A program made the position numbers and the translations under genes. A DNA stretch of 64,000 nucleotides, taken from Pseudomonadota bacterium (GTDB lineage Bacteria; Desulfobacterota; Desulfobacteria; Desulfobacterales; JAHIVH01). This document shows, in pieces, positions 42,240 to 60,485 of the stretch (positions are counted from its first letter, which is position 1; every line of letters begins with the position of its first letter). A model generated the notes under the pieces. It did not search any database. It had not been told where the DNA came from and was given only the letters and a program-made list of their open reading frames with translations. The DNA is taken from positions 20,667 to 84,666 of the forward strand of contig JAHIVH010000036.1 in assembly GCA_018816735.1 (NCBI GenBank), given 5' to 3'.

Positions 42240-42249
42240 CTGTTATAAA

Positions 42250-42956: not shown

Positions 42957-42971
42957 TTTACAAATTGTAAA
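42957..42971. promoter_or_regulatory. Palindromic upstream activator-like site, copy 1.
   Basis: TTTACAAATTGTAAA is a perfect 6-3-6 palindrome. It begins 120 bp upstream of the -24 TGGCA at 43077. Confidence 0.5.
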
Positions 42972-43076
42972 ATAATCTGACACAAAACCGAAACAGCGTT
43001 TTCTCAAGCTACCTTCCATAATCATCTATCTCCTGTTGTTTCAGCTAATTATAACAGTCCCCCCAGGCCTTTACCG

Positions 43077-43092
43077 TGGCATGCCGATTGCT
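43077..43092 (+). promoter_or_regulatory. sigma54 (-24/-12) promoter P1.
   Basis: TGGCATGCCGATTGCT has GG-N10-GC spacing and matches TGGCAC-N5-TTGCW at all but one position. It lies 56 bp upstream of the kinase ATG at 43148. Confidence 0.7.
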
Positions 43093-43147
43093 CTTAACAA
43101 TCCCAGAAAATAATGAGGATGAGCTGTGAATAAAGGAAAAAATTTTA

Positions 43148-44875
43148 ATGGAAGAAAATAATCAAAAACCCCGTTCTCCCTATTACCGGTCTTTAATGCG
43201 CCGGATGGTCGCAGTGGTCATCGTTGTCTCATTCACGCCGATGATTCTCATTACCTGGGGCTTTCTTTACCAGTTTAAAATCCTTTACCATGAAAAGGTC
43301 TATGCGCATCTTGAGGAGCTGGTCCAGAAACACCAGCAGAATATTGATGTCTTTCTTAAAGAAAAACTGGCAGATGTCAAATTTCTTGCGACCAACTTCA
43401 GTTTTGATCAACTGTCAAATGAACAATTTCTGAAACAGAAGCTGATATCGCTTGACAAGGAACATGGTCCTGTCATTACCGATTTGGGCATCATCGATGA
43501 AAAGGGCATTCAGTTAGCCTATGCCGGTCCTTTCAAACTTGAAAAAGCCAACTATGAGGCTGCAGACTGGTTTAGAAAATCAATTCTCAGTGAATACTAT
43601 ATTTCAGATGTCTTCCTTGGTTTAAGAGGGCACCCCCATTTCATTATTGCGGTCCGAAATGAAAACGAGGAGCAGAGCTGGCTTTTACGGGCAACCATCA
43701 ATTTCGAAGCATTTAACTCGCTTGTGGAAAATCTTCGGGTCGGGACCACCGGTTTTGCCTTTATTTTAAACAGGGAAGGTAAATTTCAGACCAAACCGAG
43801 CATTAACATCACGGAAACACAGGCAAAAGGATACCTGAAAGAGTATATGCAACTGAAAGACAACCGTTCGATTACAGAAGAATCTCATTTGAACGGGCAG
43901 CCCATCATTCATGTGTCATCTCTTTTGAAAAACGAGGAATGGCTCATGATATTTCAGCAGAATGCATCTGATGCGTTCAGGGATTTCATTCATGCCAGGC
44001 GTATTGCGCTGGTCATATCGTTTGTTGGCGGATGCGCCATCATCACCATGGCATTTTTAATGTCAAGGCGCATGGTAAAAATCATTGCCAAAAGAGATGA
44101 AGAAAACAAAATGATGAACCAGCAGGTCATTGAAACAGGCAAGCTTGCATCTATCGGAGAACTTGCAGCCGGAATTGCCCATGAAATCAATAATCCTGTG
44201 GCGATCATGGTAGAAGAAGCCGGATGGATCGAAGACCTTCTGGAAGAAGAGGAATTCCAGAACAGTAAAAATATGGAAGAATTCAGACGGGCATTGACCC
44301 AGATCAACACCCAAGGGAAACGATGCAAGGGCATCACGCACAAACTGCTCAGTTTTGCCAGAAAAACCGATTCCCGGGTCCATGACGTGGAAGTTAACGC
44401 GCTTATCACAGAAATTGTCGGTATCTCCGCCCAAATGGCCAAGTACAGCAATATAAATATTGAAACAGAATTTGAGGAAGGACTTCCCTATATTGAGATT
44501 TCCCCTTCTGAAATGCAGCAGGTGCTTCTGAACCTGATCAATAATGCCATCTATGCCATGGAAAAAACAGGAGGCACAATAAAAATCGGCACAAAATTAA
44601 GTCAGCTTGAAAAGGATCATATTGTCATCATTGTTGAGGATAACGGACCGGGCATACCGGAGTCAAATCTGCCGCGTATATTTGATCCGTTTTTCACCAC
44701 AAAACCGGTAGGAAAAGGAACAGGCCTGGGTCTCTCCATATGTTACGGAATCATCCAGAAAATGGGCGGGAAAATCGATGTGCATAGTGCTGTTGATTCG
44801 GGAACGCGTTTCCGTATCTGGATACCGTTTCAAAAGGAAGATCAGCAAAGTACAAAACACGAGTCAAACGCATAA
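43148..44875 (+). CDS. Sensor histidine kinase with a Cache-like periplasmic domain (paralog A).
   Basis: TM1, about 260 aa extracytoplasmic region, TM2. H-box [14 protein letters not shown]-box [10 protein letters not shown]-boxes DNGPGIP and GTGLGLSI. Confidence 0.9.
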
Positions 44876-44922
44876 GGATTAGATGAATATTTACAAGGAC
44901 AACCCAAAAAAAGGAGAATCAG

Positions 44923-45354
44923 ATGAGCGACGCAAACATACTTTTGGTAGATGATGAACAACCGTTTGTCGAAACGATGACAAAGCGGCTGGAAAAAAGA
45001 AACTATAAGGTCAATGCTGCTTTTAGCGGTTATGATGCCATCAAAATACTTGAAAAGGAAAGTCAGGTGGAAGTTGTTATTTTAGATGTGAAGATGCCTG
45101 GCAAGGATGGTATCGGCGTACTTCAGGAAATCAAACAGAAATATCCACTGATAGAAGTAATCATGCTCACCGGCCATGCAACAGTTGAATCGGCGATTCA
45201 GGGGATGAAACTGGGGGCATATGACTACCTCATGAAACCGTGCGATATGAATGAACTGGTGGCAAAAGTGGACGAGGCAACCGGTAAAAAAAGGGCCCAT
45301 GAAGAAAAAATCGTGGAAGCCAGAATGAAAAGGATCACAGGTACACGCATTTAA
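44923..45354 (+). CDS. Single-domain response regulator (receiver only) with a helical C-terminal tail.
   Basis: LLVDDE, phospho-acceptor context VILDVKMPG, LTGH and a conserved Lys (MKP). There is no output domain. Strong AAGGAG RBS. Confidence 0.9.
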   Translation: MSDANILLVDDEQPFVETMTKRLEKRNYKVNAAFSGYDAIKILEKESQVEVVILDVKMPGKDGIGVLQEIKQKYPLIEVIMLTGHATVESAIQGMKLGAYDYLMKPCDMNELVAKVDEATGKKRAHEEKIVEARMKRITGTRI

Positions 45355-45372
45355 AGGAAAAGTATATCAACT

Positions 45373-45765
45373 ATGATTAGACACCAGAAAGAAGCGCTCA
45401 AACTGCTTTTGGTTGATGATGAGGAAGGCTACGTTAATGTACTGTCAAACCGGCTTTCAAAACGAGGCATCCAGGTCAGAAAAACAACCAGCGGGACTGA
45501 AGCCATTCAAACCCTCCGAAAGGAAGAGTTTGATGTGGCGATTCTGGATTTGAAAATGGAAGACATGGACGGCATAGAAGTATTGAAGATATTCCGGAAA
45601 ATGGCCCCTGAAATGGCCGTGATCATGCTCACAGGCCACGGCAGTGAAATAGCGGCAAAAGAAGGTATCGGTCTTGGGGCCTTTGATTATTTGACAAAAC
45701 CATGCGTACTGGAAGATTTGCTGGAAAAGATTTATGAAGCAGATCACGCCCGGCGTGAAGATTAA
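45373..45765 (+). CDS. Single-domain response regulator (receiver only).
   Basis: LLVDDEE, AILDLKMEDMDG, LTGH, TKP. 130 aa with no output domain. Confidence 0.9.
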   Translation: MIRHQKEALKLLLVDDEEGYVNVLSNRLSKRGIQVRKTTSGTEAIQTLRKEEFDVAILDLKMEDMDGIEVLKIFRKMAPEMAVIMLTGHGSEIAAKEGIGLGAFDYLTKPCVLEDLLEKIYEADHARRED

Positions 45766-45863
45766 AAACGTTACCTGACAGCATGGTCCGGAAGCTTCTT
45801 TCGTTGACAACAGCAAGGATACAGGAATCAATCAACCGGACAGCAATCAGACAAGGAGTTAAA

Positions 45864-47447
45864 ATGTTCTATAAAACAAATGGATTCAAACTTTGCCTGG
45901 CTTTATTACTGGGCATTATTGTTCTTTTCCTTCCCCGGCCGGAAGGAACCAAATTCAAGATATCGGGTGACCCGGATCAGGCACTTTTTAAATCCGTCGA
46001 CACTGTTTTCAACATCCTGAAAATTGAAACCGGAAAAAAGAAGAATACCTATATTCTTGAGGCAATGCATCCGGGAACACCGGAAGCCACAGCGTCATTT
46101 CTCCAAAATCAGGTTAAGACGGGAAATCTTTCGGGCATAGAAGTCAGTTATGTGGATGGCTTGCCCTTGAAAGCCAAACGGTTTCTGGCTGTTCTGGTTG
46201 TCCTTGTGTTTTTGTTCATTGTCGAGCCCATACCGCTCGAAATTACAGCAGTAATGATCGGCGTATCTTTAGTCTTGATGGGTATTACAGATACAAAAGA
46301 TGCCTGGGCGCCTTATATGCATCCGGTCGTTATTTTTATCATGTGCTGCCTGATATTTGCCATTTCACTCGACAAGGCAGGCTTAACCAAAAGGCTTGGT
46401 TATTTTATCACCAAAAAGGCAGGAACCAGTGTCACGCGATTTACGTTTATTCTTGCCATCAGCCTGGGGCTGGCCTCCACATTCATGCATGATGCAGCTG
46501 CCTGCGCCATTGGCATCATCACCATGCTGCCCCTGATGAGGGCTGTCGGCATTGAGCCTCATACCAATACAGCCAAATTCATGATGCTCTCCCTTCCCTT
46601 TGCCTGCTCTTGTGGTGGCATGGGAAGCCTTATCGGCGGCGGGAGGTGCATGGTTTCTGCCGCATTTTTAAAGGAGTTTACCGGCATCGAAATTACATTC
46701 TTTGACTGGATCAAATACGCCATGCCCGCGGCCATTCTCACCGTGCCCATCGCAGTTTTGATTGTCTATTTTGTTTACAGGCCTGATCCCAAATTCAAAC
46801 TCCCCCAATTTGATGAAGATCTTGGCAAATGGAACGCCCTTGAAATTAAAACATCGGTCATCATCGGCCTTTCCTTTATCGCATGGCTTACCAAAGGGAT
46901 TCATGGTATGGACTACTCAATCACCGGTATGGTTGGCGTTGCCGCCCTTGTCCTTTTTGGCGTGCTGAAATGGGAGGATATCAATGACAATCTTGAGTGG
47001 GGAACCGCCCTGTTTATCTTTGGCGGCGGTATATCCCTGGGTCTTGCCATGGGATACTCCGGTGCCGCCGATTATTTTGCCAATATGTTCTTCCCGCTTA
47101 TTGAAGGCAAAGGCTGGTTGATTCTGTTTATCGGCGTGGGCGTTTTCGGAGCGCTTGTCACCAATGCCATGGCAAATGTGGCCGCAGCCGCGTTGATTTT
47201 GCCCATCGTGATTCCCATGGCCCAGCTTGAAGGCGTCAATCCCACCATCCTGGCATTATGTCTGGGGATGGCCACGTCTTTTGCCATGCTGCTGGTGATT
47301 GGATGTCCGCCCAATGCCATCTCGTATAGTTACAGATATTTCAAGTCAGGGGATTTGACCAAGGTAGGTCTTGTGGCCACACCGATCCTTCTTCTGGTAT
47401 TGGTTGTTGTCGCAGCCACCTGGTGGAAAATTTTAGGGCTTGTTTAA
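45864..47447 (+). CDS. DASS/SLC13-like (ion-transporter superfamily) permease 1.
   Basis: Multi-TM protein with the GCPPNAISY re-entrant-loop motif. AAGGAG RBS before the ATG at 45864; I reject the ORF-track start at 45783. Confidence 0.85.
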   Translation: MFYKTNGFKLCLALLLGIIVLFLPRPEGTKFKISGDPDQALFKSVDTVFNILKIETGKKKNTYILEAMHPGTPEATASFLQNQVKTGNLSGIEVSYVDGLPLKAKRFLAVLVVLVFLFIVEPIPLEITAVMIGVSLVLMGITDTKDAWAPYMHPVVIFIMCCLIFAISLDKAGLTKRLGYFITKKAGTSVTRFTFILAISLGLASTFMHDAAACAIGIITMLPLMRAVGIEPHTNTAKFMMLSLPFACSCGGMGSLIGGGRCMVSAAFLKEFTGIEITFFDWIKYAMPAAILTVPIAVLIVYFVYRPDPKFKLPQFDEDLGKWNALEIKTSVIIGLSFIAWLTKGIHGMDYSITGMVGVAALVLFGVLKWEDINDNLEWGTALFIFGGGISLGLAMGYSGAADYFANMFFPLIEGKGWLILFIGVGVFGALVTNAMANVAAAALILPIVIPMAQLEGVNPTILALCLGMATSFAMLLVIGCPPNAISYSYRYFKSGDLTKVGLVATPILLLVLVVVAATWWKILGLV

Positions 47448-47475
47448 AAACGGCCAGGCCTGATAAAAGGATTTG

Positions 47476-48636
47476 ATGCTCATGGACGCAATCAAAACAC
47501 TTCTCGTGGATGATGAGAAAAGTTTTATTGAAACAATAGAAAAACGGCTTAAAAAAAGAGGGTTTGCACCCTATTTGGCCGAGAGCGGCAAGAAATGCCT
47601 GGAAATCCTTAAGGATTCAACCATCCATATCGTGGTTTCAGATGTGAAGATGCCGGGTATAGGTGGCATCGACCTTTTGAAAAAAATAAAACAGGACTAC
47701 CCGGCCATTGAAGTGATTCTGCTCACAGGGCATGCCAATCCGAACGATGGCGTGGAAGGGATCAAGCAGGGTGCGTTTGACTACCTGACCAAACCGATCG
47801 AACTTGAGCATCTCATCGGAAAAATAAACCAGGCATGGGACAAAATCCAGAGGATCAAGGAAAAAAAAGAGGAAGAAGCGTTTCGGGAACGGATGAAAAA
47901 ACAATTGATTGCAAATGAGCGCCTGGCATCCTTAGGCACATTATCTGCAGGCGTTGCCCATGAAATCAATAATCCACTGGCCATTATCAAGGAATCTGCC
48001 GGTTGGATGAATACAATCATAAGCGGGATGAACTTATCAACCGTTCCCCGACTGAATGATTTAAAGACAGCCATTGACAAAATAGAGAAAAGTGTGGAAC
48101 GGGCAAGAAGAATCACCCATCAGCTGTTAAGTTCCGTAAAAAAGCAGGATACGGCGCTTTCGGAAATCCGTCTGAATGAATTTCTTCAGGAAACCATCCA
48201 TCTGGTTAAAAGAAGTTTACCAGAAAAAAATATTAAAATGTCCCTTGACACCCGTCATACCGATGGCATCCTGTGGACTGATCCCTATCAGCTCCGTCAG
48301 ATATTGATCAATCTTTTTACAAATTCGGCAAGAGCCATATCAAACGAAGGATGGATTGATCTTACGGTGGCTGACACCGGAGATCTTGTTTCAATAAGCC
48401 TGAAGGATAACGGAGAGGGCATTGCTTATGAAAACCTTGAAAAAATCTTTGAACCTTTTTTTACCACCAGAGCACCTGGTGAAGGAACAGGGTTAGGTTT
48501 GTTTATCACCCGGGGCATTGTGGAAAAACTGGGCGGAAAAATTGAGGTGGAGAGTCAGGTCGGGGAAGGAGCCTTATTCACGCTTGTTTTGCCAAAATTC
48601 AATAAAAATTGTGACACCCAAAAAGGGAGAAATTAA
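47476..48636 (+). CDS. Cytoplasmic receiver-histidine kinase fusion (REC-HisKA-HATPase).
   Basis: N-terminal REC ([22 protein letters not shown]), then H-box [13 protein letters not shown] and G-boxes DNGEGIA and GTGLGLFI. No TM segment. The start is 47476 or 47482. Confidence 0.9.
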
Positions 48637-48639
48637 CAT

Positions 48640-49086
48640 ATGGGAAAAATCAGAATACCAACCAGAGTACTTGTTGTGGACGATGAAAAAGATTTTGTAG
48701 AAATACTCTCAAACCGTCTGGAAGAAGCCGGTGAAACCGTTTCCAGCGCAAACAGCGGTCAGGAATGCCTCAAGGTGCTTGATGAAAAAACGATTGATGT
48801 GGTCATCCTTGATATAAAAATGCCGGGCATGGATGGGATGGATGTATTGAAAGAAATCAAAAAGCGCCACCCCCTGGTCGAAGTGATCATGCTGACCGGC
48901 CATGGCAGTACGGAAACAGCCGTGGACGGCATGAAAGCAGGTGCGTTTGATTATCTGTTAAAACCTGCGGATTTCAGTGAACTGACAAAAAAACTCGTTG
49001 GCGCCCGGAAACGGAAAGACGACCAGGAAGAACGCATCAGGCAGGCTGAAGTTAAACTGCTTTTAAGAAAAGGCGGAAATATATAA
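48640..49086 (+). CDS. Single-domain response regulator with a helical C-terminal tail.
   Basis: VLVVDDE, VILDIKMPGMDG, LTGH, LKP. No output domain. Confidence 0.9.
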   Translation: MGKIRIPTRVLVVDDEKDFVEILSNRLEEAGETVSSANSGQECLKVLDEKTIDVVILDIKMPGMDGMDVLKEIKKRHPLVEVIMLTGHGSTETAVDGMKAGAFDYLLKPADFSELTKKLVGARKRKDDQEERIRQAEVKLLLRKGGNI

Positions 49087-49099
49087 AGGACCTGAAAGA

Positions 49100-50791
49100 A
49101 TGGTAAAAGATAGCGTCTACAAATCCTTGAAGAATGTTATTCTCGTGAGCATGATCGTTGTGCCGTTCATACCGTTTATCATGACGGTAGGTACCGGATA
49201 TTACTACTTCACCTATTCACTTGAGAACAGCACCATATCGAGCATGCAAAGGATTGTAGACGACCATCGGCTGATGATAGAATCCTTTTTAACCGAACGC
49301 AAAGCGGATCTGGAATATGCCCTTGATGCCATAAGCATGGAAGATCTGAAATCTCCTGACACGGTTGATCATGTATTTGAAAGGCTTCAACGGAAATCCA
49401 CAGCCTTTTTCGACCTGGGTGTATTTGACGGGGAAGGCGTTCATCTGGCCTATCATGGACCGTTTAAATTGACAGGAAAAAATTACGGCAGGGAAGAATG
49501 GTTTAAAAGAGTCCTTCAAAATGGCTATTATATCAGTGACGTTTTCTCCGGTTTCCGGGAGGTGCCTCACTTTATCATCGCGGTGTGCCGTGAAGAAAAG
49601 AACGGGAAAAAAATCATCCGGGCGACTATTGATACCAAAATTTTCAATAACATGGTAGAAAAAGTTCGTATCGGTAAAACAGGAGAAGCCTATATCATTA
49701 ACAAAGACGGTATTTTACAGACAGAAAGGCGCTCAGGCGGCGAACTAATGACCAATGATCCGGACCATTTGGCATACAAAGATTTTCACAAAGGGATACT
49801 TACGTTTATCCATAAGGACGTAAAAGGAAATACCCATTTGTATGCCACAACGTGGATTCTGGATAACAAATGGATTCTGGTTGTCAGGCAGGAAAAGGCG
49901 GATGCGTTTAAATCGCTCCGCCTGGCCGCCTATCTTATCATTCTGATTTCCATGGCAGGCGGAATCGTGATCACAAGCCTTGCGTTTTATATATCCGGAA
50001 AAATTGTGAAATGGATCAGAAAAACGGAATCGGAAAAAGGCGATATGGAAAAACAGCTGATAAGTGCCACCAAGCTGGCAGAGCTGGGTGAAATGGCTGC
50101 AGGTTTTGCCCATGAGATCAACAATCCCCTTCAGATCATGAAAAGCGAATATGCGCTGATAAAAACAATTCTTCCGGCCATCAAAGAAAAAAAATCTGAA
50201 AACTTTTCCGACGACATGAAAGAAATTGAAGAATCGATGGATCAGATTGAGCTTCAGATCAACCGCTGCTCCAAAATCACCCATGCCATCTTAAAATTCG
50301 GCAGATACAGTGAACCTGTTTCCCAGGCCATATCCCTGAAAACATTTCTGCAGGAAATGATAGACATCATTTCAAAAAAAGCCTCGGTAAACGGTATCAG
50401 GCTCTCAATAGAACTCTCACATGACACCCCGGATATCAAAGGAGACCCGGCACAACTTCAGCAGGTCATCATCAACCTGTTTAACAATGCCATGGATGCG
50501 ATTATGGAAAGGCATGGTGTGAGTGGCGGTATTCTTGCAGTCAAATCCGGAAAGAGATTAACAAATAAACATGCTTTCATTTCCGTATCCGATAATGGTA
50601 CAGGGATTGCCCCTGAGCATTTAAAAAAAATCTTCACACCTTTTTTTACGACCAAACCGGTAGGAAAAGGCACGGGCCTTGGCCTGTCTGTCTGCTATGG
50701 CATTATCGGCAATATGGGCGGCAGCATGGGTGTGGAAAGCGATACGGGAAATGGCACTATTTTTACCATCGTTCTTCCTGCAATATCTTGA
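49100..50791 (+). CDS. Sensor histidine kinase with a Cache-like periplasmic domain (paralog B).
   Basis: Same architecture as 43148-44875. Shared sensor blocks include GPFKL..NY...WF......YYISDVF.G.R..PHFIIAV. H-box [13 protein letters not shown]; G-boxes DNGTGIA and GTGLGLSV. Confidence 0.9.
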
Positions 50792-50808
50792 ACCTTATCT
50801 TGCTGGGT

Positions 50809-52581
50809 CTATTCTCCTTTCAGCCGGGTAAATGTGCCAATATCGGGCGGTTCAAACCTGACATACCTGCCTGAGTGCCATTTTAAAAAAATCAATGACG
50901 GATCATCAAACGCTTTTTTAAAATGAAAAGCGACCTTTTCAGGCCTGCCGTCTGTTGTCAAAGATAATATTTCGATGGTCAGTCCAGTCAGCTCGATTCT
51001 TTTTCCTTTTTGCAATGGATGCAATTGATCCCGAAAACCGGTACTACCCCGTTCTGAAAAATATCCGCCTTCGGGTTCAACGACCAGTGTCTGCGGATCG
51101 GTTCTCATAATTTTCAAATTATTTAAACCAGCGAAAAGAACCCTCAGGTGCATCGGTATTGAAAGGTTATAGCACATACGGGTGACAAGAAAATAAATAC
51201 CTTGCAGTGCGTCGACTGGATTTATCAGAACAAGGTCTTTGTCTGTGTAATCTGTTTGTGTCCCCAGATTCATTGCCGGCGCATGATACATCTTTTGGGT
51301 AAAATTATTAAAAATCATCATTTTCATGGAAAACAGCAAAGGAGAAAGAAACAAATGGACAGCGATTAAAATAATGACAAGGAAATTTGTCAAGATTCGC
51401 AAGAATTTCATATTTGGCAACCACGGTGCATTATGATGCCAGCTGAATATCAACTGCGCCAGGAGTGCTACTGCTCCCATACCGGTAAAAATAAACAGAC
51501 GGTCATCGCTAAAAGCGGCGCACATCAATATCGATGACAGGAAAAAACCTGTAAACCAAAAACGGGCTTTATTATCTGTGCGAAGCAGCGGGAAAATAAG
51601 TGTGAGACCAATCGCGCTTAAAACCAGCGTGGCAAACCACATTGGTGTCTTTACGGCTTCAGGCAGGATAAAAAATGTTGAAGGAGATATCCCCCATTCT
51701 CCCTGGAACATTACGGGAAGCCGTTTATGCAGGACTGATATGAATTCAAGCGGACTCTTGGCCGGGTCAATGTATGTCATTGAGCCGAAACTGCCAAAGC
51801 GGCCAATAGTATAAAAAATTCGCCAGGTAATTGTGACCATCATATACGGCAGCAGACTCAGTGCCCTATCTTTTAATCTCCGGTTATCTATAAACACACT
51901 ATAAGAAAAAATATAAAATATTGTAACAACGCCGTATTCTGCGGATAAAAGAGAAAGGATCAAACAAACAGGCGCAATGATATAACCGGCTTTCCAGGTA
52001 TCCTTTATTAAACGATCATGAGCGATAAGAGATGAAACACCAAAGAATGTGGCTATCATGGAATTTCTAGCGGCTATCCAACTGACATTCAAAAAGTGCG
52101 TATGGTCAAGGGCGTACAACAGCCCGGCAAGACCGGCAAGATGAGTGATACCCATTATTCTTCTGAAAAAGATCGATACGACCAGGACGACAGCGCCAAA
52201 CCAGAGTAGATTATGGAACAGCATAAATTCAGGTGAGTCAGGCAGAAATTGATAATCCAGCCAATGGGTAATTTCAGCCAACGGCCGCCAAAAAGAAATG
52301 CGAAGCCCTTCATATGTCCACCAGGGAAGATCCCCCCTGTCCAGCTGCTGTAAAAATTCTGCATGGTTTTTGGTCTGCCATGAAAACATGCCAAACAGCC
52401 GGAAGCCGTTTATTGGGTTGTCCATGGCAGAAGAATCCATAAATTTGATGCGATGAATATAGTCATCGACCTTAAACCCCGTAAACAAACCCGGCAGGCT
52501 TATAAACATGGCCAACAGTGACAGGATGACAGGCAAACGGGCATGGGTCAGCAGGGAAAACGCTTTTTCATATTTTTCCAT
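50809..52581 (-). CDS. Polytopic membrane protein, tentatively a GT-C-fold (ArnT/PMT-like) glycosyltransferase.
   Basis: About 12 TM helices, a DD motif (KVDDYIH) in the first predicted loop, and a soluble C-terminal domain of about 130 aa. The assignment is by architecture only. Confidence 0.5.
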   Translation of the reverse strand: MEKYEKAFSLLTHARLPVILSLLAMFISLPGLFTGFKVDDYIHRIKFMDSSAMDNPINGFRLFGMFSWQTKNHAEFLQQLDRGDLPWWTYEGLRISFWRPLAEITHWLDYQFLPDSPEFMLFHNLLWFGAVVLVVSIFFRRIMGITHLAGLAGLLYALDHTHFLNVSWIAARNSMIATFFGVSSLIAHDRLIKDTWKAGYIIAPVCLILSLLSAEYGVVTIFYIFSYSVFIDNRRLKDRALSLLPYMMVTITWRIFYTIGRFGSFGSMTYIDPAKSPLEFISVLHKRLPVMFQGEWGISPSTFFILPEAVKTPMWFATLVLSAIGLTLIFPLLRTDNKARFWFTGFFLSSILMCAAFSDDRLFIFTGMGAVALLAQLIFSWHHNAPWLPNMKFLRILTNFLVIILIAVHLFLSPLLFSMKMMIFNNFTQKMYHAPAMNLGTQTDYTDKDLVLINPVDALQGIYFLVTRMCYNLSIPMHLRVLFAGLNNLKIMRTDPQTLVVEPEGGYFSERGSTGFRDQLHPLQKGKRIELTGLTIEILSLTTDGRPEKVAFHFKKAFDDPSLIFLKWHSGRYVRFEPPDIGTFTRLKGE

Positions 52582-52778
52582 ACATAACTACTTATTCTGA
52601 CTTCGTTAAAATTCAACACGGCTGCCAGCTTCAATGCAGAAAACCGCGCTCGCAATTCTATAGCCGACAGTCGCTTTTGATGACGAATGGGGTGGCATTG
52701 TACGCAATTCCTGTCAAGCGTATTTAAACCTTGGTAAACATGATATTGAAAATCCAATAATAAAATTACAGATACAGT

Positions 52779-52793
52779 TTTACAAGATGTAAA
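52779..52793. promoter_or_regulatory. Palindromic upstream activator-like site, copy 2.
   Basis: TTTACAAGATGTAAA is a perfect 6-3-6 palindrome. It begins 118 bp upstream of the -24 TGGCA at 52897. AT-rich, bendable DNA lies in between. Confidence 0.5.
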
Positions 52794-52896
52794 AAACATC
52801 GACATGAAAATTGGACCTGCTTTCACCCCCCAAAAAAATCATAATAATTTATAATATATTTTCAGGTAGTTGTATATAAAAATTTTCAAACTGGTC

Positions 52897-52912
52897 TGGC
52901 ACAAAGGTTGCC
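52897..52912 (+). promoter_or_regulatory. sigma54 (-24/-12) promoter P2.
   Basis: TGGCACAAAGGTTGCC is an exact TGGCAC-N5-TTGC. It lies about 100 bp upstream of the receiver gene at 53014. Confidence 0.75.
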
Positions 52913-53013
52913 ACACATAAAAAATGAAAATGCATATTTTTTTTTCTTCAGGTCATTTCCTGGCAGAAGCTGAAGCTGACAGGATAATTATTATTTAATC
53001 GAAACAGGGGGTA

Positions 53014-53472
53014 ATGATGGAAAAATTGAAACTGTTGCTTGTGGATGATGAGAAAAGATTTCTTGAAACCACAAGCAAGCTCCTTTCTAGAAAAGGACTG
53101 GAAGTTTACACGGCAACAAATGGCCAGGATGCGCTTGACCTAATTCAAAAGCAAATCATCCATGTGGTCATTCTGGACGTGAAAATGCCGGGCATGGATG
53201 GCAACACCGTATTAAAACGGATAAAGGACAGTTATCCGCTTGTGGAAGTCATTATGTTAACCGGCCATGGAACGATTGAATCTGCAGTGGAAGGGCTGAA
53301 AAGCGGGGCCACAGACTATCTGGTCAAGCCTGCAGATATAGAAGAACTGGCATCCAAAGCAGAAGAAGCCTATGAAAAACGGCTCAAACAGGAAGAAAAA
53401 ATCCGCATGGCCCGTGCCCGGATGTTCATGAAATCACCCAGGGAAATTTTGAAAGAGGCAGACAAACTTTAA
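53014..53472 (+). CDS. Single-domain response regulator with a helical C-terminal tail.
   Basis: LLVDDE, VILDVKMPGMDG, LTGH, VKP. No output domain. Confidence 0.9.
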   Translation: MMEKLKLLLVDDEKRFLETTSKLLSRKGLEVYTATNGQDALDLIQKQIIHVVILDVKMPGMDGNTVLKRIKDSYPLVEVIMLTGHGTIESAVEGLKSGATDYLVKPADIEELASKAEEAYEKRLKQEEKIRMARARMFMKSPREILKEADKL

Positions 53473-53507
53473 TCAATCGTGTGAATCGTTCCTTTTCGGA
53501 GGTGAAT

Positions 53508-55361
53508 ATGCAGCAAACAAAATCGAAAAAAATAACCGGATATGATAAGTATGTGGACTGGAAGATATTTATTGTTCCGGTTGTCCTGTTTTTTGTCTTT
53601 ATCTTCATGCCAACACCCTATGGCATGAAAGATGTGGGTATGGAATACAACATCGGGCAGAAATCCGTAATCAACCTGATCACCGAATCCCTTTTTGGTG
53701 TAAAAGGCAATGAGGCGGCACAATGGCAGCTTCTGACCGCCCAAATCATGGAACAGAACATGCAGATGGGGGCACTTAACCGAAAGCGATATCTGAAACG
53801 GGATATCAAGTGGTGCAGCAGCAATAAAATCGAAGCAGACAAATCCAACTTTGAGAAAGCCTATGCATTTATTGATTCTCAAATTGACGACCAAACGTAT
53901 CTTTCCTTGATGCAAAATGCCCTCAAACACCGGAAAGAAGGCCTGAAGTATGAAAACCTCACCGGTTCGGATAAAAAATCAGCCGACAAAGGCGCCTGGC
54001 ACATCAAGGTGGCTATCGCCATGAGCGTATTTGTTGTCTTATGCTTTTTGACCGAATGTATCCCCTTGCCAGGCGTTGCCTTCTGTATAGGGCTTATTCT
54101 GGTATTTACAGGTGTTCTTTCGAGAAAAGAAGTGGCCATGCTCTATTGGGATGATGCGTGCTGGTTTATCATGGGAAGTCTCATGTTCGCCGCAGCTTTC
54201 GTAAAAACCGGCGTGGACAAACGGGTATGCCTGATGATGTTCAAGAAACTGGCTACACCCAATGTCAAATGGATCACCCTGATCTTCTTCATCATCATTA
54301 CTCCTCTTGCCGCGTTTATCTCGGATCATGCGCTTGCGGCCATGTTTCTTCCCATAGGCATGCTTCTCTATCAGAACAGCCTGACACGGGAAACACCGGA
54401 TGATCCGGAACTCGCCAAAATGCTTATGATCACCATCGCCATGGCTTGCAACCTGGGAGGGCCGGGTTCACCGTCAGGCGGCGCCAGAAACGTCATCATG
54501 ATGACCTACCTCTCCGATATGTTTGGCATGGATATCGGCTATTTCCAGTGGATGATCTACTGTTTTCCATTCGTCATGGTCATGATCCCCATTGGATGGT
54601 TTTTCATCAATTTTCGGTTTAAGCCGCAAATTCACTCTCTGGCACCTGCCATGAAACACCTTCAAACCGAAATAGGGAAAATGGGGGATTGGAACCGATC
54701 ACAGATATGGGCACTGATCATCTTTGTCGTCATGGTCTTTTTCTGGTTCACGGAAAAAACATTTTACGAAATGGGAATACTCCCGATCCGAATGGGGATC
54801 GGTGTGGTAGCAGTAGCCGGCGCAGTCGCCTATCTTCTGACAGGCGTGGTGAACTGGCGGGATTATCAGGAAAAAGTGGATTGGGGTGTGGTCTGGCTCT
54901 ATGCAGGCGCCATCATCTTCGGCCGGACGCTTGACAGCACTGGTGCGGCTTATTGGCTAGCCAGATCCGTTCTCGATGCGCTCGCACCTCTGGGAATGAA
55001 TGCAGGGCTGCCATTAATGGCCCTTTCAAATGGCATGACCGCAATTCTCACCAATCTGATGGCTGATGGTCCGGCTGCAGCAGCAATTGGACCGATTACA
55101 CTTAACATGGCAGGGCTTGCCCATCCCGGAACCTATTTTCTACCATTCATGGCCATGTCCACAGCCATTGCTTCTTCTTTTGCCTATTGCCTGATTATAG
55201 GAACGCCACCCAATGCAATCGTATATGCAAGCGGCTATCTTGAACCCAAGGATTTTTTGAGAGTGGGTATACCGCTTTGGTTTATTACGAACATCGTTCT
55301 TCTTGTTCTGACAGGTGTATACTGGATGGTTATAGGATTTGGAGAAATGCCTGGCTTTTAG
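53508..55361 (+). CDS. DASS/SLC13-like permease 2, with a large hydrophilic insert after TM1.
   Basis: GTPPNAIVY and PSGGARNV re-entrant-loop-like motifs. GGAGG RBS before the ATG at 53508; the ORF track starts at GTG 53481. Confidence 0.85.
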   Translation: MQQTKSKKITGYDKYVDWKIFIVPVVLFFVFIFMPTPYGMKDVGMEYNIGQKSVINLITESLFGVKGNEAAQWQLLTAQIMEQNMQMGALNRKRYLKRDIKWCSSNKIEADKSNFEKAYAFIDSQIDDQTYLSLMQNALKHRKEGLKYENLTGSDKKSADKGAWHIKVAIAMSVFVVLCFLTECIPLPGVAFCIGLILVFTGVLSRKEVAMLYWDDACWFIMGSLMFAAAFVKTGVDKRVCLMMFKKLATPNVKWITLIFFIIITPLAAFISDHALAAMFLPIGMLLYQNSLTRETPDDPELAKMLMITIAMACNLGGPGSPSGGARNVIMMTYLSDMFGMDIGYFQWMIYCFPFVMVMIPIGWFFINFRFKPQIHSLAPAMKHLQTEIGKMGDWNRSQIWALIIFVVMVFFWFTEKTFYEMGILPIRMGIGVVAVAGAVAYLLTGVVNWRDYQEKVDWGVVWLYAGAIIFGRTLDSTGAAYWLARSVLDALAPLGMNAGLPLMALSNGMTAILTNLMADGPAAAAIGPITLNMAGLAHPGTYFLPFMAMSTAIASSFAYCLIIGTPPNAIVYASGYLEPKDFLRVGIPLWFITNIVLLVLTGVYWMVIGFGEMPGF

Positions 55362-55398
55362 GTAATGGCAGTTTGAAATGAATAAAAGGAGTCACATC

Positions 55399-55545
55399 AT
55401 GAACCAGGACCTTGACCAAAAAAAAATGTTTATCTTTTCAAAAGGGAAAATGTATTTTTCGAAAGATACAGAAAGAAGAATCTGTTTTTTTCTCACACTG
55501 ACCATGTTGATTTCAGCGGCTTTGTTTAAGGCAGGGATCATTTGA
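55399..55545 (+). CDS. Candidate 48-aa small membrane protein (below the ORF-track size cutoff).
   Basis: AAGGAG RBS 8 nt before the ATG. Translation: MNQDLDQKKMFIFSKGKMYFSKDTERRICFFLTLTMLISAALFKAGII, with one C-terminal hydrophobic helix. It sits between the DASS-2 and Yip1-like genes. Confidence 0.35.
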   Translation: MNQDLDQKKMFIFSKGKMYFSKDTERRICFFLTLTMLISAALFKAGII

Positions 55546-55569
55546 CACAAGCGAAAGAAGGAACATGAT

Positions 55570-56103
55570 ATGCATCATACGTCTTTTTCAGCACATTATT
55601 ATGTGACAACACTCTCAGGCCTTCTCAGAAAGCCCGGCGTTTTTTTCAGGGAATCCCTTGATCAGGAGACATCTCTCCGGGCATTCCTCTTTTTACTGAT
55701 ATCAGGTGTTTTCTCTACAGCGGCAGCGCTTCTGATGAATCCCGATATCAGGGCACTCCTACCCACAGGAATTCTTTTTGTGAATGCTATTGGGATGTCT
55801 GTGCTTGCCGCTTTTACCGGATATGGCATCATGGTCATGATGGTCGGAAAAAAAATATCTTTTGCCAGATTTTTCAATATTTACGCCTTTTCCTCAGGCG
55901 TGATCCTTCTGGCCTCATGGATACCTTTTTTGGTCATTATCACAGAACCCTGGCGATGGATACTGATCGGCACCGGGCTCGTCAAGGGAGGTCAGATGAA
56001 AAAGTTTCAGGCATTTATGATCATTATCCTCTCAATCACGGTCATGACCCTTTTGTTCTGGTCGATTCTGCCTGTCTTGTCCGTTGTCAAAGGAAAAGGA
56101 TAA
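55570..56103 (+). CDS. Yip1-domain-like integral membrane protein.
   Basis: 177 aa with five predicted TM helices after a short cytoplasmic N-terminus. The family call is by architecture and memory only. Confidence 0.55.
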   Translation: MHHTSFSAHYYVTTLSGLLRKPGVFFRESLDQETSLRAFLFLLISGVFSTAAALLMNPDIRALLPTGILFVNAIGMSVLAAFTGYGIMVMMVGKKISFARFFNIYAFSSGVILLASWIPFLVIITEPWRWILIGTGLVKGGQMKKFQAFMIIILSITVMTLLFWSILPVLSVVKGKG

Positions 56104-56182
56104 GGATAAACAAAATGGCTGTTTCATGATTTTTAATTGGATATTTACGGCATGATTATTAATAAAAAAGGAGACAAACCCC

Positions 56183-57088
56183 ATGAATAAAATAATTAAA
56201 GTCCTGATGGTGGATGACGAGGAACAGTTTCGAAAAACCACCAAAAAAATTCTTGAAAAAAAAGGATTTGAGACCATCATGGCTGAGAACGGCAGGCAAG
56301 CCATTGATATGCTCAAAGAAAAACCGGATGTGGTCGTGCTGGATATTAAAATGGAAGGCATGGATGGCCATGAAACACTGGATGAAATCAAAAAGCGCTC
56401 ACCTGATTTGCCGGTCATTATGCTCACAGGCCATGGTGCACTGCCATCTGCCAAAGAGGCATTAACCCAGGGGGCCTTTGATTACCTGTCAAAGCCCTGT
56501 GATATTGATCTTCTGGCTTCGAAAATTAAAGACGCCTGCAAATTTAAATTTCAGGATGACGTGGACACGGAAAAAAAAGTTTCTGACATCATGATCCCCC
56601 TGAACGAATATACACTGGTCGAAGCAAACCAGACTATTGAAGAGGCAGTCAAAAAACTGAAAGACTCTTTTCTGTCCAAAGTCGCCACAAGCCGGTTGAT
56701 GGAAACCGGCCATCGTTCCATTCTTGTCACGGGAAAGGATAAAAGTATTCTTGGCCTTTTAACGATTCTTGACCTGCTGAACGCCATTATGCCGGGCTAC
56801 CTCTCTGCGCCAAGGCCGTCTACTGCGGACAGCGTCAGGTACTCTCCCATGTTCTGGACCGGTATGTTTACAAGAGAAACCCTGGAACTAAAGAAAATAC
56901 CCATAAGCCAGATCATGAGTCCTGCGCCCATTACCATTGATGAAGATGCCAATATCATGGAAGCCGCACACACCATTATCGAATTTGAAACAAGGCGGCT
57001 TCTTGTGATATCAAAGGGCAAACCGATTGGGATTGTCCGGGAGCAGGATCTGTTCTTTGAAATGGAGCGGATCATGTCGAGCCAATGA
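56183..57088 (+). CDS. Response regulator with a tandem CBS-domain output (REC-CBS-CBS).
   Basis: REC motifs (LMVDDEE, VVLDIKMEGMDG, LTGH, SKP), then two CBS repeats (VSDIMIPL... and ISQIMSPAPITID...GIVREQDL). Confidence 0.88.
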   Translation: MNKIIKVLMVDDEEQFRKTTKKILEKKGFETIMAENGRQAIDMLKEKPDVVVLDIKMEGMDGHETLDEIKKRSPDLPVIMLTGHGALPSAKEALTQGAFDYLSKPCDIDLLASKIKDACKFKFQDDVDTEKKVSDIMIPLNEYTLVEANQTIEEAVKKLKDSFLSKVATSRLMETGHRSILVTGKDKSILGLLTILDLLNAIMPGYLSAPRPSTADSVRYSPMFWTGMFTRETLELKKIPISQIMSPAPITIDEDANIMEAAHTIIEFETRRLLVISKGKPIGIVREQDLFFEMERIMSSQ

Positions 57089-57133
57089 CATTGAACTTAA
57101 GTACGATCAGGCTGAATGATCTCCTTTCTTAAA

Positions 57134-57162
57134 CCGGTATGGAGAGTTCTTCTCCATACCGG
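57134..57162. terminator. Bidirectional terminator hairpin between convergent genes.
   Basis: ccggtatggaga-g ttc t-tctccataccgg (12-13 bp stem, 3-nt loop). It is flanked by T-rich sequence on the minus-strand side. Confidence 0.6.
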
Positions 57163-57177
57163 AGTTCCCGATTTCAC

Positions 57178-58605
57178 TCAGGTGCTCATTTTAATCTTGT
57201 ACCGGTCTATCTTGGCAAGAAGCGTGGGCCGGGACAGGCCTAGAATTTTTGCAGCCTGGCTCCGGTTGCCTTGAGACAGGTTAAGGGCCTCCCGCGTCAG
57301 AATTTCTGCAAAATAATCCATAATATCCTCAAAGGTGTGCTCGGAAGAGGAGGACTGAATCTTTTGATGAACCCAGTCCCGCATGATTTTATCGATATCC
57401 GTCATGGTATCGGATGTGGGCATCCTGGAAAGATGATTCTCACCATCCGAGGTTCTCAGAATATCGTCTTTACTGATTGGTGTTCCCTGATTGAAAATCA
57501 GGGCTTTCTGAATCACATTGGCAAGCTCCCTGACGTTTCCCGGCCAGGGGTAAGTGATGAGTGCATTTTTAGCTTCTTTATCTGCGCCCGGATTGGGAAT
57601 GCCCATTGCATGGCTGAACCTGGATAAAAAATGATCTGCGAGAAAGGAAATATCTTCCGTTCTTTCCCGAAGTGGCGGCAAAGAGAGTGTCACTACTTTC
57701 AACCGGTAATATAAATCTTCCCTGAAGGTACCGCTTGAGACAGCTTCTTCAAGATTTCTGTTGGTTGCTGCAATGATCCGCACATCAACAGGGATGGCAT
57801 TTCGCCCGCCCAACCGTTCGATACTTTTTTCCTGCAAAAGACGGAGAATCTTTGATTGAATGTTAAACGGCATATCTCCGATTTCATCCAGGAAAACCGT
57901 CCCTCTGTTCGCCTGTTCGATTTTACCGACACGTCTTCCCGCGGCCCCTGTAAACGCGCCTTTTTCATATCCAAAGAGTTCACTCTCAAGCAGGGTCTCC
58001 GGTATGGCCACACAATTGATCACCAGGAACGACTGATCGTGTCTCTGACTGTGCTGGTAAACGGCACGTGCCACAAGCTCCTTGCCTGTTCCGGATTCTC
58101 CCCGGATAAGGACCGTTGCATCTGTGGGGGCCACACGCCCAATGGATTTGTATATCTCCTGCATGGGCTTGCTTTTTCCGACGATCGCGTCTTCTGATAC
58201 GTTTTCCGGCGAGACATCCATCTGAACCCGGGATCTCATGCATCGGCCCGCATGAAGCCCTTTTTTAATCAATTCAAGTATATCCGGTATTTCAAAAGGT
58301 TTCAGCACATAATCAAATGCGCCCATCTTGGTTGTTTCAATGGCGGTTTCTGTTGTACCATAAGCGGTCATGATAATCACCGGCAGTCTCGGCTCGATGC
58401 CGTGCATGATCTTGAATGCTTCAAACCCATTCATATCAGGCATTCTGACATCCATAATCACCAGATCGGGCATATCTCTTTTAACAACTTCAATGCCGGC
58501 AGCACCGGACGAGGCTGTCTGCGTTCTGTATCCTTCTTCGTCCAACACTTTTTTAAAACTGTTTCTCAGTTGAGGGTCATCATCCACAATAAGAATTGTT
58601 GTCAT
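57178..58605 (-). CDS. sigma54-dependent response regulator (NtrC/Fis family bEBP).
   Basis: REC ([19 protein letters not shown]), AAA+ with Walker A GESGTGKE, the GAFTGA loop ([15 protein letters not shown]), and a C-terminal Fis-type HTH ([16 protein letters not shown]). Confidence 0.93.
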
Positions 58606-60073
58606 TTCCTATATCCTTGCAAGGTAAAACTATTGTAAATATTGTACCGTTTCCCGGCTTTGAAACCAATGAAAGCATGCCGCCATGTTCATCGATAATA
58701 CGATTGGCAATGCTTAATCCCAGGCCCGTCCCCTCTTCCTTGGAACTGTAAAACGGTTGAAAAACAGTCTCCTGAACGGGTTCGGGAATACCCGGTCCAT
58801 TGTCCTGGACCTGAATCACCACCGATCCGCCAAACGGGTCAATGGTTTTCTCTCCTTCGATGATGGTAAGACGTCCCCCATCCCCCATAGCCTCACACGC
58901 ATTCACCATCAGATTAACCAGAACTTCCTTCAGCTGCTCCGGATCAACCGGAATCATGGGAAGTCTGGACTGCCTTTTCACAGTAACCCATGTGCCATAA
59001 GACTCCAGGCGATATTTTAAAAGCTGAAGGGCCATATCCACCACATCGGAAGGACTGATTGTCTGACGCTTTAATTTAGGCGGTCTTGAAAATTCCAGAA
59101 AATTTTTCAAGACTGTATCGATCTGCCTGATTTCTGCTGAAATCACTTCAAGATCCTCTTTTTGCGCAGAAGTCAGTTTCAAACTTCTCTCCAACGAGAA
59201 TAACCGCATTTTAACTGAAGTCAAAGGATTTCTGACACTGTGTGCAACTCCTGCCGCCAGTTTCCCCACTGTTGCCATTTTTTCAGCCTGGACAAGCTGA
59301 CCTTTGCTCGCAACAAGTTCTTCCCGGGTATGCCCGAAATCTGCAATCAAGCCATTCACCTGCTTCTTTAATGTTTTGACTTCATCGCCCGAAAGAAAAG
59401 TGGCCTGATCTGGTTCTATGCCGGAGGACAGTTCCCGGATGGGCTTGAACACCTGAATATAGAGAATAAAAATCAAAAAAAATACCAGAAGCGCATCAAC
59501 CGGAATGGCTATCCAGGCAAACACAGAAACCAGCCGTGACGCTTTTCGGTAGCTATTCATGGCAGATGTAATGCTCTTTTCGTGAATATCCCTGAATGTT
59601 TCACTGAGTTTTCTTATCTTAAAAAACTGGTCCCTGACGCCCCAGTGGGCCTCCGCACCTTCATCCTTTTTTCCTTCCTTGTAAAGGGCAATCACGTTGT
59701 CTCTTGAATAGGTGTAATGAAGGTATCCGGATTCAATATCATTCAAGATCCCTCTTGCATAGCTGTCTTTGGATGTCTCTCTTGCCCGTTCAAGGGATTT
59801 CATAAATTCGCTATGAAAATCATTGAGTTGGTCCAGCCATTTGGCAGCGTTGGTCAGAAAAAAATACGTGGTCAACCCCTTCTGCATCACAAGTGCTGCA
59901 TCCATTTTCTGGGCGGCAATCAGGGATGCCATATTATTTTCGATCCTGGACATATAAAGATACTGGGTTTTACGGATATGCCATACGGTTATCAGGGAAC
60001 CGGCAAGTGTGATAAGGGTTAAGAGCAGAATGATGAAAAAAAGCTTCTTTTGTAAACTCAGCCTGGCAAACAT
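58580..60073 (-). CDS. Membrane sensor histidine kinase, cognate partner of the NtrC-type regulator.
   Basis: TM1, helical periplasmic domain, TM2, HAMP-like linker. H-box LAAGVAHSVRNPL, N-box LMVNACEAM, G-boxes DNGPGIP and GTGLGLSI. The 3' end overlaps the regulator start by 26 nt. Confidence 0.9.
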   Translation of the reverse strand: MFARLSLQKKLFFIILLLTLITLAGSLITVWHIRKTQYLYMSRIENNMASLIAAQKMDAALVMQKGLTTYFFLTNAAKWLDQLNDFHSEFMKSLERARETSKDSYARGILNDIESGYLHYTYSRDNVIALYKEGKKDEGAEAHWGVRDQFFKIRKLSETFRDIHEKSITSAMNSYRKASRLVSVFAWIAIPVDALLVFFLIFILYIQVFKPIRELSSGIEPDQATFLSGDEVKTLKKQVNGLIADFGHTREELVASKGQLVQAEKMATVGKLAAGVAHSVRNPLTSVKMRLFSLERSLKLTSAQKEDLEVISAEIRQIDTVLKNFLEFSRPPKLKRQTISPSDVVDMALQLLKYRLESYGTWVTVKRQSRLPMIPVDPEQLKEVLVNLMVNACEAMGDGGRLTIIEGEKTIDPFGGSVVIQVQDNGPGIPEPVQETVFQPFYSSKEEGTGLGLSIANRIIDEHGGMLSLVSKPGNGTIFTIVLPCKDIGNDNNSYCG

Positions 60074-60261
60074 ATTTTTTACCTCATTTATCAGGTATTG
60101 AAGTCCGGTATGCCAGACCGTTTGATATTATCGTTTGGTTACACATATTTATATATTAACGAAAACGAAAATCATGTCAATCTGCAAATGAATGGTTCCC
60201 CTGGGAAATCACCTGTTCGGGAAACGATCCGGAAACCTTTCTCCCCATCGGTCACATCCGG

Positions 60262-60276
60262 TTTACACACTGAAAA
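60262..60276. promoter_or_regulatory. Upstream activator-like site, copy 3 (one mismatch).
   Basis: TTTACACACTGAAAA has the same 6-3-6 frame with TGAAAA in place of TGTAAA. It begins 120 bp upstream of the -24 TGGCA at 60382. Confidence 0.4.
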
Positions 60277-60381
60277 AAAATTGGACACCGCACACGGTTT
60301 AATGCCCTTTCGATTAAAACAGCAATCGGTGTTTATTTAATAATTACTTGATACTATACCGTCATTGTCTATAATGTCAAT

Positions 60382-60397
60382 TGGCACAGAACTTGCC
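60382..60397 (+). promoter_or_regulatory. sigma54 (-24/-12) promoter P3.
   Basis: TGGCACAGAACTTGCC is an exact TGGCAC-N5-TTGC. It lies about 90 bp upstream of the ATG at 60486. Confidence 0.75.
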
Positions 60398-60485
60398 ATT
60401 TGTCATATCATCAGAACATGAAAACAATGGCCTGAGCACCTGTACTATAAAATCAGGCAAAAAACTGTGAAATCGGGAAAGGTTT

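Follow-up and report, generated by a model that had tools for sequence, protein, structure and literature searches.

A conserved 27-bp element, sigma-54 promoters and a candidate two-component regulator of a DASS-type transporter island in Desulfobacterota

The DNA considered here is a stretch of 64,000 nucleotides (hereafter the window; contig JAHIVH010000036.1 of the Desulfobacterales assembly GCA_018816735.1; G+C content 43.8%) that carries an island of genes for DASS permeases, dCache sensor kinases and receiver proteins. Three co-oriented operons of this island are each preceded by a sigma-54 promoter and, further upstream, by one copy of a 27-bp element. In our reading, to which we give a probability of about 0.75, the three sites serve as enhancer elements for a single sigma-54 regulon, and the kinase/activator pair encoded within the island would be its cognate regulator. 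As far as can be read from the DNA, the arrangement of element, IHF-like site and −24/−12 promoter is conserved next to orthologues of this pair, and many sulfate-reducer-like genomes have the same architecture upstream of genes for DASS and TauE/TSUP permeases, for Usp, CBS and receiver proteins and for dCache kinases.

Promoters and Upstream Sites in the Window

An earlier reading, made from the letters of the window alone (the sequence-only reading), had proposed three sigma-54 promoters, each with the same palindrome upstream. All six sequences that it quoted, three palindromes and three promoters, are present where it had placed them. Promoter P1 (TGGCATGCCGATTGCT) lies at 43077..43092, P2 (TGGCACAAAGGTTGCC) at 52897..52912 and P3 (TGGCACAGAACTTGCC) at 60382..60397, all on the plus strand, and the operons start 45–92 nt downstream. 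The palindromes have the form TTTACA-N3-TG(T/A)AAA and belong to longer sites: enhancer element 1 (upstream activating sequence 1, UAS1; 42957..42983, +, TTTACAAATTGTAAAATAATCTGACAC), enhancer element 2 (UAS2; 52779..52805, +, TTTACAAGATGTAAAAAACATCGACAT) and enhancer element 3 (UAS3; 60262..60288, +, TTTACACACTGAAAAAAAATTGGACAC), the last of them in a divergent intergenic region. They begin 120, 118 and 120 bp, respectively, upstream of the TGGCA of the co-oriented promoters, exactly as the sequence-only reading had measured. A search of the 64 kb with TTTACANNNTGTAAA, allowing one mismatch, gave exactly three matches (42957, 52779, 60262), in line with the earlier remark that the window holds no further copy; in shuffled versions of the window 0.26 matches were expected, and three copies were reached in 1 of 100 shuffles. 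For the promoter 16-mer TGGCACNNNNNTTGCW, with the same tolerance, six matches were found where 2.7 were expected, and three of them are P1, P2 and P3, which have one mismatch each (1, 0 and 0 if the last position is left free). Three palindromes at one distance from co-oriented promoters that are followed by operon starts are thus not a product of chance.

The promoters follow the consensus TGGCAY-N5-TTGCW. Among 90 related promoters, conservation extended to positions that the scan had left free, namely the T before GG, the G after GGCAC and the T after TTGC. Between element and promoter, each region of the window contains an IHF-like site, scored as a match to the consensus WATCAANNNNTTR only: site 1 at 43039..43051 (+, TTTCAGCTAATTA; 7/9 consensus positions, 38 bp upstream of TGGCA), site 2 at 52860..52872 (+, TTTCAGGTAGTTG; 7/9, 37 bp) and site 3 at 60341..60353 (−, TATCAAGTAATTA; 9/9, 41 bp). 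In the 90 related promoters, 34 of the 49 IHF matches at 8/9 or better fall between −40 and −31, and the A+T content is highest, at 75%, between −55 and −35 with respect to TGGCA. We also observed that P3 forms, at 60382-60398, a perfect inverted repeat (TGGCA-N7-TGCCA), which a terminator scan flagged as a hairpin with T-run; this repeat is probably incidental.

Conservation at Orthologous Loci and in Metagenomes

The combination of the 27-bp element with a sigma-54 promoter at a defined distance is called a composite in what follows. The activator protein was scanned against one genome per species, which yielded six likely orthologues (60–74% identity), from metagenome-assembled genomes (MAGs) of Desulfobacterales type, and 74 more distant activators; the best relatives among GTDB representatives outside the orthologue group reach at most 49% identity. 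Conservation of the motif at orthologous loci had been named by the sequence-only reading as a check, and a composite was indeed found at eight of the nine orthologue-anchored loci with usable flanks. Locus L001 contains two composites and L002, L003 and L004 contain one each, with distances of 120–122 bp, and in L005 the distance is 141 bp, that is, two helical turns more. The composite is also present at L203, where the activator has 81% identity, and twice at L204, which belongs to a Desulfobaccales MAG. In L002, L003, L005 and L204 the element begins 40–230 bp past the stop codon of the activator gene. The operon downstream of it in L003 and L005 encodes a dCache kinase, a receiver and a DASS permease, then a receiver-CBS protein and further kinases, which matches the gene set of the window. 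The 74 loci of non-orthologous activators (1.1 Mb) contained 19 strict sigma-54 promoters, two palindromes and no composite. The proposal of one local regulon was therefore supported with regard to the shared site and the regulator pair (8/9 versus 0/74 loci), and had to be given up only in that the regulon is not just local.

Metagenomes were searched for the element followed by GGCAY-N5-TTGC at any distance of 113–143 bp. At least 120 stretches were found, and those listed comprise 80 loci with 92 matches. The distance was 120–123 bp in 70 of these 92 matches (binomial p = 3e-43 against a uniform spread), and a few others were at 132–134 bp. Overall, the distance from enhancer to promoter is held at 118–125 bp, with rare variants longer by about one helical turn. 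This rigid spacing, together with rare variants that are longer by one or two helical turns, argues for a dependence on the face of the helix. An orthologous kinase/activator pair (59–67% identity) adjoins the composite in 10 of the 80 listed loci, which are mostly short and were selected by the pattern (p ~3e-18 for a single-copy gene). A chance co-occurrence of motifs in AT-rich intergenic DNA might be suspected, as strings resembling TGTAAA-N7-GACA are more frequent in the window than expected (12 found, 4.2 expected); it is already refuted by the comparative data, in which three of three sites share one distance, 1.1 Mb around other activators are free of composites and the spacing peak has p ~3e-43, and we regard its probability as negligible.

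The distance is not absolute, since it is about 314 bp in Desulfocicer vacuolatum and 210 bp in Desulfovibrio vulgaris. In the former (L207 1641-1970, FWXY01000001.1), the element TTTACACGTTGAAAAAAAATCTGACAT lies upstream of an operon of dCache kinase, receiver and DASS permease; the only sigma-54-like promoter, CGGCATCATAGTTGCT, is at the said ~314 bp, not 120, and an integrase gene is situated just upstream. Another DASS operon, in the MAG CP070694.1 (L206 7934-8043), is preceded by GGTTTACATTT, and about 100 Ns begin directly after "TTTACATTT".

Judged from its genes, the island of the window corresponds to a published cluster of DASS-type sulfate transporters. In Desulfosarcina variabilis, this 30.5-kb cluster contains DASS-type sulfate transporters, many two-component genes, Usp, CBS and receiver-CBS genes (PMC11887813, Sci Adv 2025), and it is conserved among the Desulfobacteraceae as well as in further sulfate reducers (PMC11887813). 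DASS permeases, dCache kinases, receivers, receiver-CBS, Usp and CBS proteins are common to both clusters. The permease encoded at 53481-55361 of the window is 80% identical to a "sodium/sulfate symporter" of D. variabilis, and the gene order receiver, DASS, small open reading frame (ORF), Yip1-like, receiver-CBS is found in the window as well as in D. variabilis (L205). Two composites are present in the D. variabilis cluster, which is located at 4.31–4.33 Mb of CP159846.1. One, with a distance of 121 bp, precedes the series Usp, CBS, Usp, receiver, dCache kinase, receiver, DASS on to receiver-CBS, and the second, with 122 bp, precedes DASS, dCache kinase and receiver genes.

The Candidate Enhancer Element

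Alignment of the three upstream regions of the window showed that conservation runs on to a GACA located 7 nt past the palindrome. Nine sites, from the window and the orthologous loci, gave the consensus TTTACA-N3-TGTAAA-aaa-N4-GACAC, and the full asymmetric element of 27 bp has the consensus c-TTTACA-N3-TGTAAA-AAAt-N-Ct-GACA. In 89 distinct metagenomic sites, considering the positions that the search pattern had left free, T1 and A4 were each conserved in 98%, T12 in 94% and G23 in 97% of the sites, with 0.8–1.2 bits at A16, A17 and A18 and 0.96 bit at C21. Outside positions 0–26, the information in these 89 sites was near zero. The element thus spans 27 bp, is asymmetric and comprises three half-sites, ACA(4–6)-N3-TGT(10–12)-N11-ACA(24–26), together with an A-tract. 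The 15-bp palindrome that the sequence-only reading took for the site is real and forms its dyad part, and the conserved unit is larger and tripartite. A second dyad or a tandem copy of the element was considered and rejected on the same ground, the information being ~0 outside positions 0–26. Also, a weak inverted partial element (TTTAAATACGCTTGACA) was noticed on the minus strand at 52712-52728, 51 bp upstream of enhancer element 2.

With regard to what characterizes an enhancer, the data comprise a conserved, dyad-containing site in the range of ~80–200 bp upstream of the promoter and a phylogenetic co-occurrence of this site with the regulator.

The Candidate Activator and Its Kinase

The activator gene (57178-58605, −) encodes receiver, sigma-54 AAA+ and HTH_8 domains (Pfam Response_reg, 3.4e-32; Sigma54_activat, 1.2e-72; HTH_8, 3e-08). 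The GAFTGA loop is located at 57960 (−), and a DDD motif is visible in the translation. The protein thus has the features of the NtrC family: a receiver with acceptor Asp, an AAA+ domain with GAFTGA and a C-terminal helix-turn-helix of Fis type. A six-frame search of the window for GAFTGA-type and ELFG motifs detected this one sigma-54 activator only, as the sequence-only reading had claimed. The gene rpoN is not in the window. The scores of the activator were below all NCBIfam equivalog cut-offs, i.e., 480.8 versus 558.6 for NtrC (TIGR01818), 472.3 versus 714 for AtoC, 435.1 versus 502.6 for PEP_resp_reg (TIGR02915) and 384.8 versus 760 for ZraR, and it is therefore not NtrC, AtoC, ZraR or PrsR proper; the match to PEP_resp_reg stops at residue 383, before the DNA-binding domain. 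The helix-turn-helix GNRSxAAxLLG(L/I)SRPTL(L/H)SK is kept in all orthologues and is different in the relatives with 47–49% identity (L007, L008). Its conserved segment GNRSxAAxLLG(L/I)SRPTL is probably the part that reads the TGT/ACA triplets.

The gene of the sensor kinase (58580-60073, −) overlaps the activator gene by 26 bp and encodes a 4HB_MCP_1 sensor, a HisKA and a HATPase domain. In its periplasmic four-helix bundle (residues ~35–185), Q64, G66, Y70, W79, F90, Y117 and V127 are invariant, as expected with a conserved ligand. For the kinase/activator operon itself, a sigma-54 promoter was looked for and rejected, as no match with GG-N10-GC spacing exists on the minus strand of 60074-60260; only a sigma-70-like candidate, TTGACA-16-TAATAT at 60153..60180 (−), was detected there, as a consensus match only. 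A palindrome TTCCC-CT-GGGAA at 60196-60207, followed by GTTCGGGAAAC, lies between the start codon of the kinase and enhancer element 3. This palindrome is reminiscent of the half-sites GTTCC...GGAAC that D. vulgaris DVU0118 recognizes, and it might be an autoregulatory site.

Comparison With Described Systems and Alternative Explanations

In classical sigma-54 systems, such as NtrC at glnAp2, NifA at nifH and DctD at dctA, an activator site, an IHF bend and a −24/−12 promoter are arranged in this order. The system described here shares with them an NtrC-type activator with its kinase, a dyad-containing site ~100–150 bp upstream, an IHF-like AT-rich site and the GG-N10-GC promoter. It differs from them in that one 27-bp asymmetric element with three half-sites (ACA-N3-TGT-N11-ACA) takes the place of tandem dyads, and in its unusually rigid spacing (120–123 bp). 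The architecture itself (activator site, IHF-like site, sigma-54 promoter) is of a known type and involves no new mechanism.

The 42-aa DNA-binding domains of D. vulgaris activators (Kazakov Additional file 2) were compared by eye with that of the window activator. The closest was DVU0118, with 24 of 42 identical residues by eye and the recognition helix SRPTLLARMERY, and orthology to DVU0110, DVU3305, DVU3334 or DVU0804 was rejected as the comparison points to DVU0118. DVU0118 targets a membrane transporter, and its validated site, ATGTTCCC-N4-GGGAACAT, consists of TGT-N12-ACA around a GC-rich core (Rajeev et al., 2011, PMC3333781). The sites of the sigma-54 response regulators DVU3334 (GTTACA-N3-TGTAAC) and DVU3305 (GTTGCA-N3-TGCAAC), the latter of which targets genes with Usp domains (PMC3333781), have the same 6-N3-6 geometry and TTACA-N3-TGTAA core as the palindrome of the window; they differ in their kinases (KdpD-like; a Lon-receiver three-component system), in their DNA-binding domains and in having no GACA extension. 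The DVU0804 site GTAAAC-N5-GTTTAC was rejected as an instance of the same motif, its half-sites being similar but in the opposite orientation.

Several observations weigh against the assignment of the three sites to the local pair. Each promoter has one element, unlike the tandem sites of many such activators. The DVU0118 site and the window element share only the outer TGT...ACA triplets, and there is no A-tract at DVU0118. The DASS proteins of D. variabilis were reported to be formed constitutively, in a comparison of high-sulfate cultures only (PMC11887813). In the complete MAG L202 (CP070694), no composite was found within 10 kb of the orthologous pair. Positions 10–26 of the element (TGTAAAAAAtnCTGACA) match 15 of the 17 positions of the site TGTAAAAAAAGCTGACA (TGT-N11-ACA), which was predicted for DVU0110/DVUA0057 upstream of the TSUP permease operon DVU0132-0133 in four Desulfovibrionales genomes (Kazakov et al., 2015, PMC4641369). 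Also, sigma-70-like hexamers are present near P3 (60348-60375, 11/12 positions) and elsewhere in the region.

The likeness to the DVU0110/DVUA0057 site, along with the situation in L202, would fit an alternative in which the element is bound by another, non-local sigma-54 activator, for example one resembling DVU0110/DVUA0057 (PrsR), and the local pair is only a frequent target or neighbour. The DVU0110/DVUA0057 system is likewise sigma-54 dependent with a TSUP/TauE permease as target, and other activator paralogues (40–41% identity) occur in two of the listed pattern-selected loci. However, none of the 74 loci of other activators has a composite, whereas the element begins 40–400 bp past the stop codon of the activator in L002, L003, L005, L096, L105, L106, L132, L153, L156 and L204; the helix-turn-helix is kept across orthologues, and the window encodes no other activator. 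At DVU0132 the promoter is listed 210 bp away from the site (PMC4641369), compared with 111 bp for the matching part of the element in the window. The DNA-binding domain of DVU0110 shares 11 of 42 residues, by eye, with the window activator, and that of DVUA0057 differs too, so that membership in the DVU0110/DVUA0057 regulon agrees with the motif but not with an orthologous regulator. We consider this alternative unlikely.

Another alternative is that the palindrome is the operator of a repressor or activator of sigma-70 type, or that the operons are driven by sigma-70, the −24/−12 matches being incidental. The hexamers near P3 are in its favour, but −24/−12 promoter, IHF-like site and 120-bp spacing are co-conserved at activator-anchored loci, which were not selected on the promoter, and conservation also covers those bases of the promoter that the scan pattern did not specify. 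An operator 120 bp upstream would also be unusual for repression. Such an explanation appears highly improbable to us.

Gene Map of the Island

Operon 1, behind P1, extends over 43148-50791 (+) with intergenic gaps of 4–48 bp and encodes a dCache kinase, two receivers, a DASS permease (45783-47447), a receiver-kinase, a receiver and a second dCache kinase, in this order. Operon 2, behind P2 (53014-57088, +), encodes a receiver, the DASS permease of 53481-55361, a Yip1-like membrane protein and a receiver-CBS protein. Operon 3, behind P3, begins at 60486 (+) and runs past the window end at 64000; its first product is a hybrid kinase with dCache, HAMP, GAF, HisKA, HATPase and three receiver domains. 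On a longer contig (L081, 1-8120), operon 3 consists of genes for the hybrid kinase (1231 aa), a receiver-PAS-kinase (519 aa) and a receiver (132 aa), and beyond them a PAS-HisKA_3 kinase and then a NarL-type (GerE) response regulator were observed. The receivers of operons 1 and 2 have no DNA-binding domain, which leaves the activator as the sole transcriptional output that the island encodes; a domain search of the island proteins found no second DNA-binding response regulator.

A pstSCAB-like ABC transporter with a PBP_like_2 binding protein, two permeases and one ATPase is encoded at 39561-42930 (+), and the stop codon of its pstB-like gene lies 27 bp upstream of enhancer element 1. The pst-like genes follow an operon for a metal ABC transporter of ZnuA/ABC/ABC-3 type at 36816-39431. 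A multi-pass membrane protein of 590 aa, with no match in Pfam or NCBIfam, is encoded between operons 1 and 2 (50809-52581, −), divergently from P2; it is not present at the equivalent position of L203, the locus with 81% identity. An Rfam scan of 36000-64000 for leader RNAs gave no match.

For the D. variabilis cluster, sensing of sulfate by cache kinases with WalR-type regulators was proposed (PMC11887813), whereas operons 1 and 2 of the window encode no DNA-binding regulator. The sequence-only reading did not recognize the wiring as a described system. This no longer applies to the gene island, which is published, and still applies to its sigma-54 wiring: in PMC11887813, sigma-54 appears once in the main text, in an unrelated context, "enhancer" is absent from the main text and "NtrC" from the supplements. 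Sulfate is the putative substrate of the DASS permeases, for which the literature relies on homology and proteomics. In Desulfobacterium autotrophicum, the clustered DASS genes HRM2_38230 and HRM2_38300 are, according to the statement in PMC5840216 that cites Tarpgaard 2017, induced below 100 µM sulfate, which fits an inducible promoter.

Content of the Proposed Regulon

The genes behind the composites suggest that anion permeases (DASS, TSUP/TauE) form the core of the regulon along with Usp proteins, CBS proteins and a second tier of signalling proteins. Among the listed metagenome loci, the first gene downstream (n = 85) encodes Response_reg (18), Usp (17), DASS (7), dCache (7) or CBS (5) proteins, and more rarely CstA (2), TauE (2), a Pat-like acetyltransferase (2), Porin_O_P (2) or Hsp20 (1); the second gene (n = 58) encodes dCache kinases (8), receivers (7), TauE (5) or CBS (5). 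At the orthologous loci L001 and L002, the composites precede genes for Usp, CBS, Usp and Pat-like acetyltransferase proteins and also for a receiver, a GGDEF and a cytidylate-kinase-like protein, and the regulon is therefore broader than the island; its members elsewhere include Usp, CBS, TauE/TSUP, CstA and acetyltransferase genes. In L004, small ORFs without Pfam matches follow the composite. Elsewhere, the first gene behind the composite may code for a PstS-like binding protein or a phosphate-selective porin (Porin_O_P). In L204 (4283-7051), a composite precedes Usp, a DVU0150-like small protein (PF28216), TauE and DUF4881 genes, a set that resembles the D. vulgaris operon DVU0150-0146, there regulated by a different activator, DVU0151.

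Proposed Mechanism and Significance

On the reading that the local pair acts at the three enhancer elements, a mechanism can be proposed by analogy with what is established for NtrC-family activators. The kinase would sense a periplasmic ligand via its four-helix bundle, autophosphorylate at the conserved His278 and phosphorylate the Asp in the receiver domain of the activator, which would then oligomerise on the 27-bp element. IHF would bend the DNA, and the GAFTGA loop, with ATP hydrolysis, would open the closed sigma-54 complex. Transcription would be expected to start ~12 nt past the GC of the −12 elements (43090, 52910 and 60395), i.e., near 43102, 52922 and 60407, with predicted leaders of ~45, 92 and 79 nt. 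In this manner, a single two-component pair would control the expression of two DASS permeases and, as a second tier, of kinases and single-domain receivers without DNA-binding output. One may speculate that these second-tier proteins exert feedback on the activator or affect the permeases directly.

Because DASS and TSUP permeases as well as Usp, CstA and Hsp20 are among the targets, one may speculate, at less than even odds, that the pair responds to sulfate, to a different sulfur-oxyanion or to energy limitation. The more far-reaching idea that the pair could be a master switch for sulfate/sulfur-oxyanion uptake in Desulfobacterota is doubtful at present; the four-helix bundle would then sense external sulfate, much as NarX senses nitrate, and act through the 27-bp element to induce alternative DASS and TSUP permeases along with the second tier of cache kinases and receivers and with Usp and CBS proteins.

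These data concern the regulation of sulfate uptake in marine sulfate reducers, including how the cells change between uptake of low and of high affinity when sulfate runs out with sediment depth. To our knowledge, the published models name cache-domain kinases and give no transcriptional output. A described sulfate-transporter cluster thus gains a testable transcriptional switch, with a cis-element, a candidate regulator pair and a predicted regulon. The arrangement is common to many uncultured and some cultured Desulfobacterota, including D. variabilis, for which proteomic data exist, and the specificity of the element is sufficient for its use as a probe for members of the regulon in metagenomes. 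The gene content further suggests a regulatory cascade, in which one two-component system would stand over at least four further kinases and six receiver proteins without DNA-binding domains.

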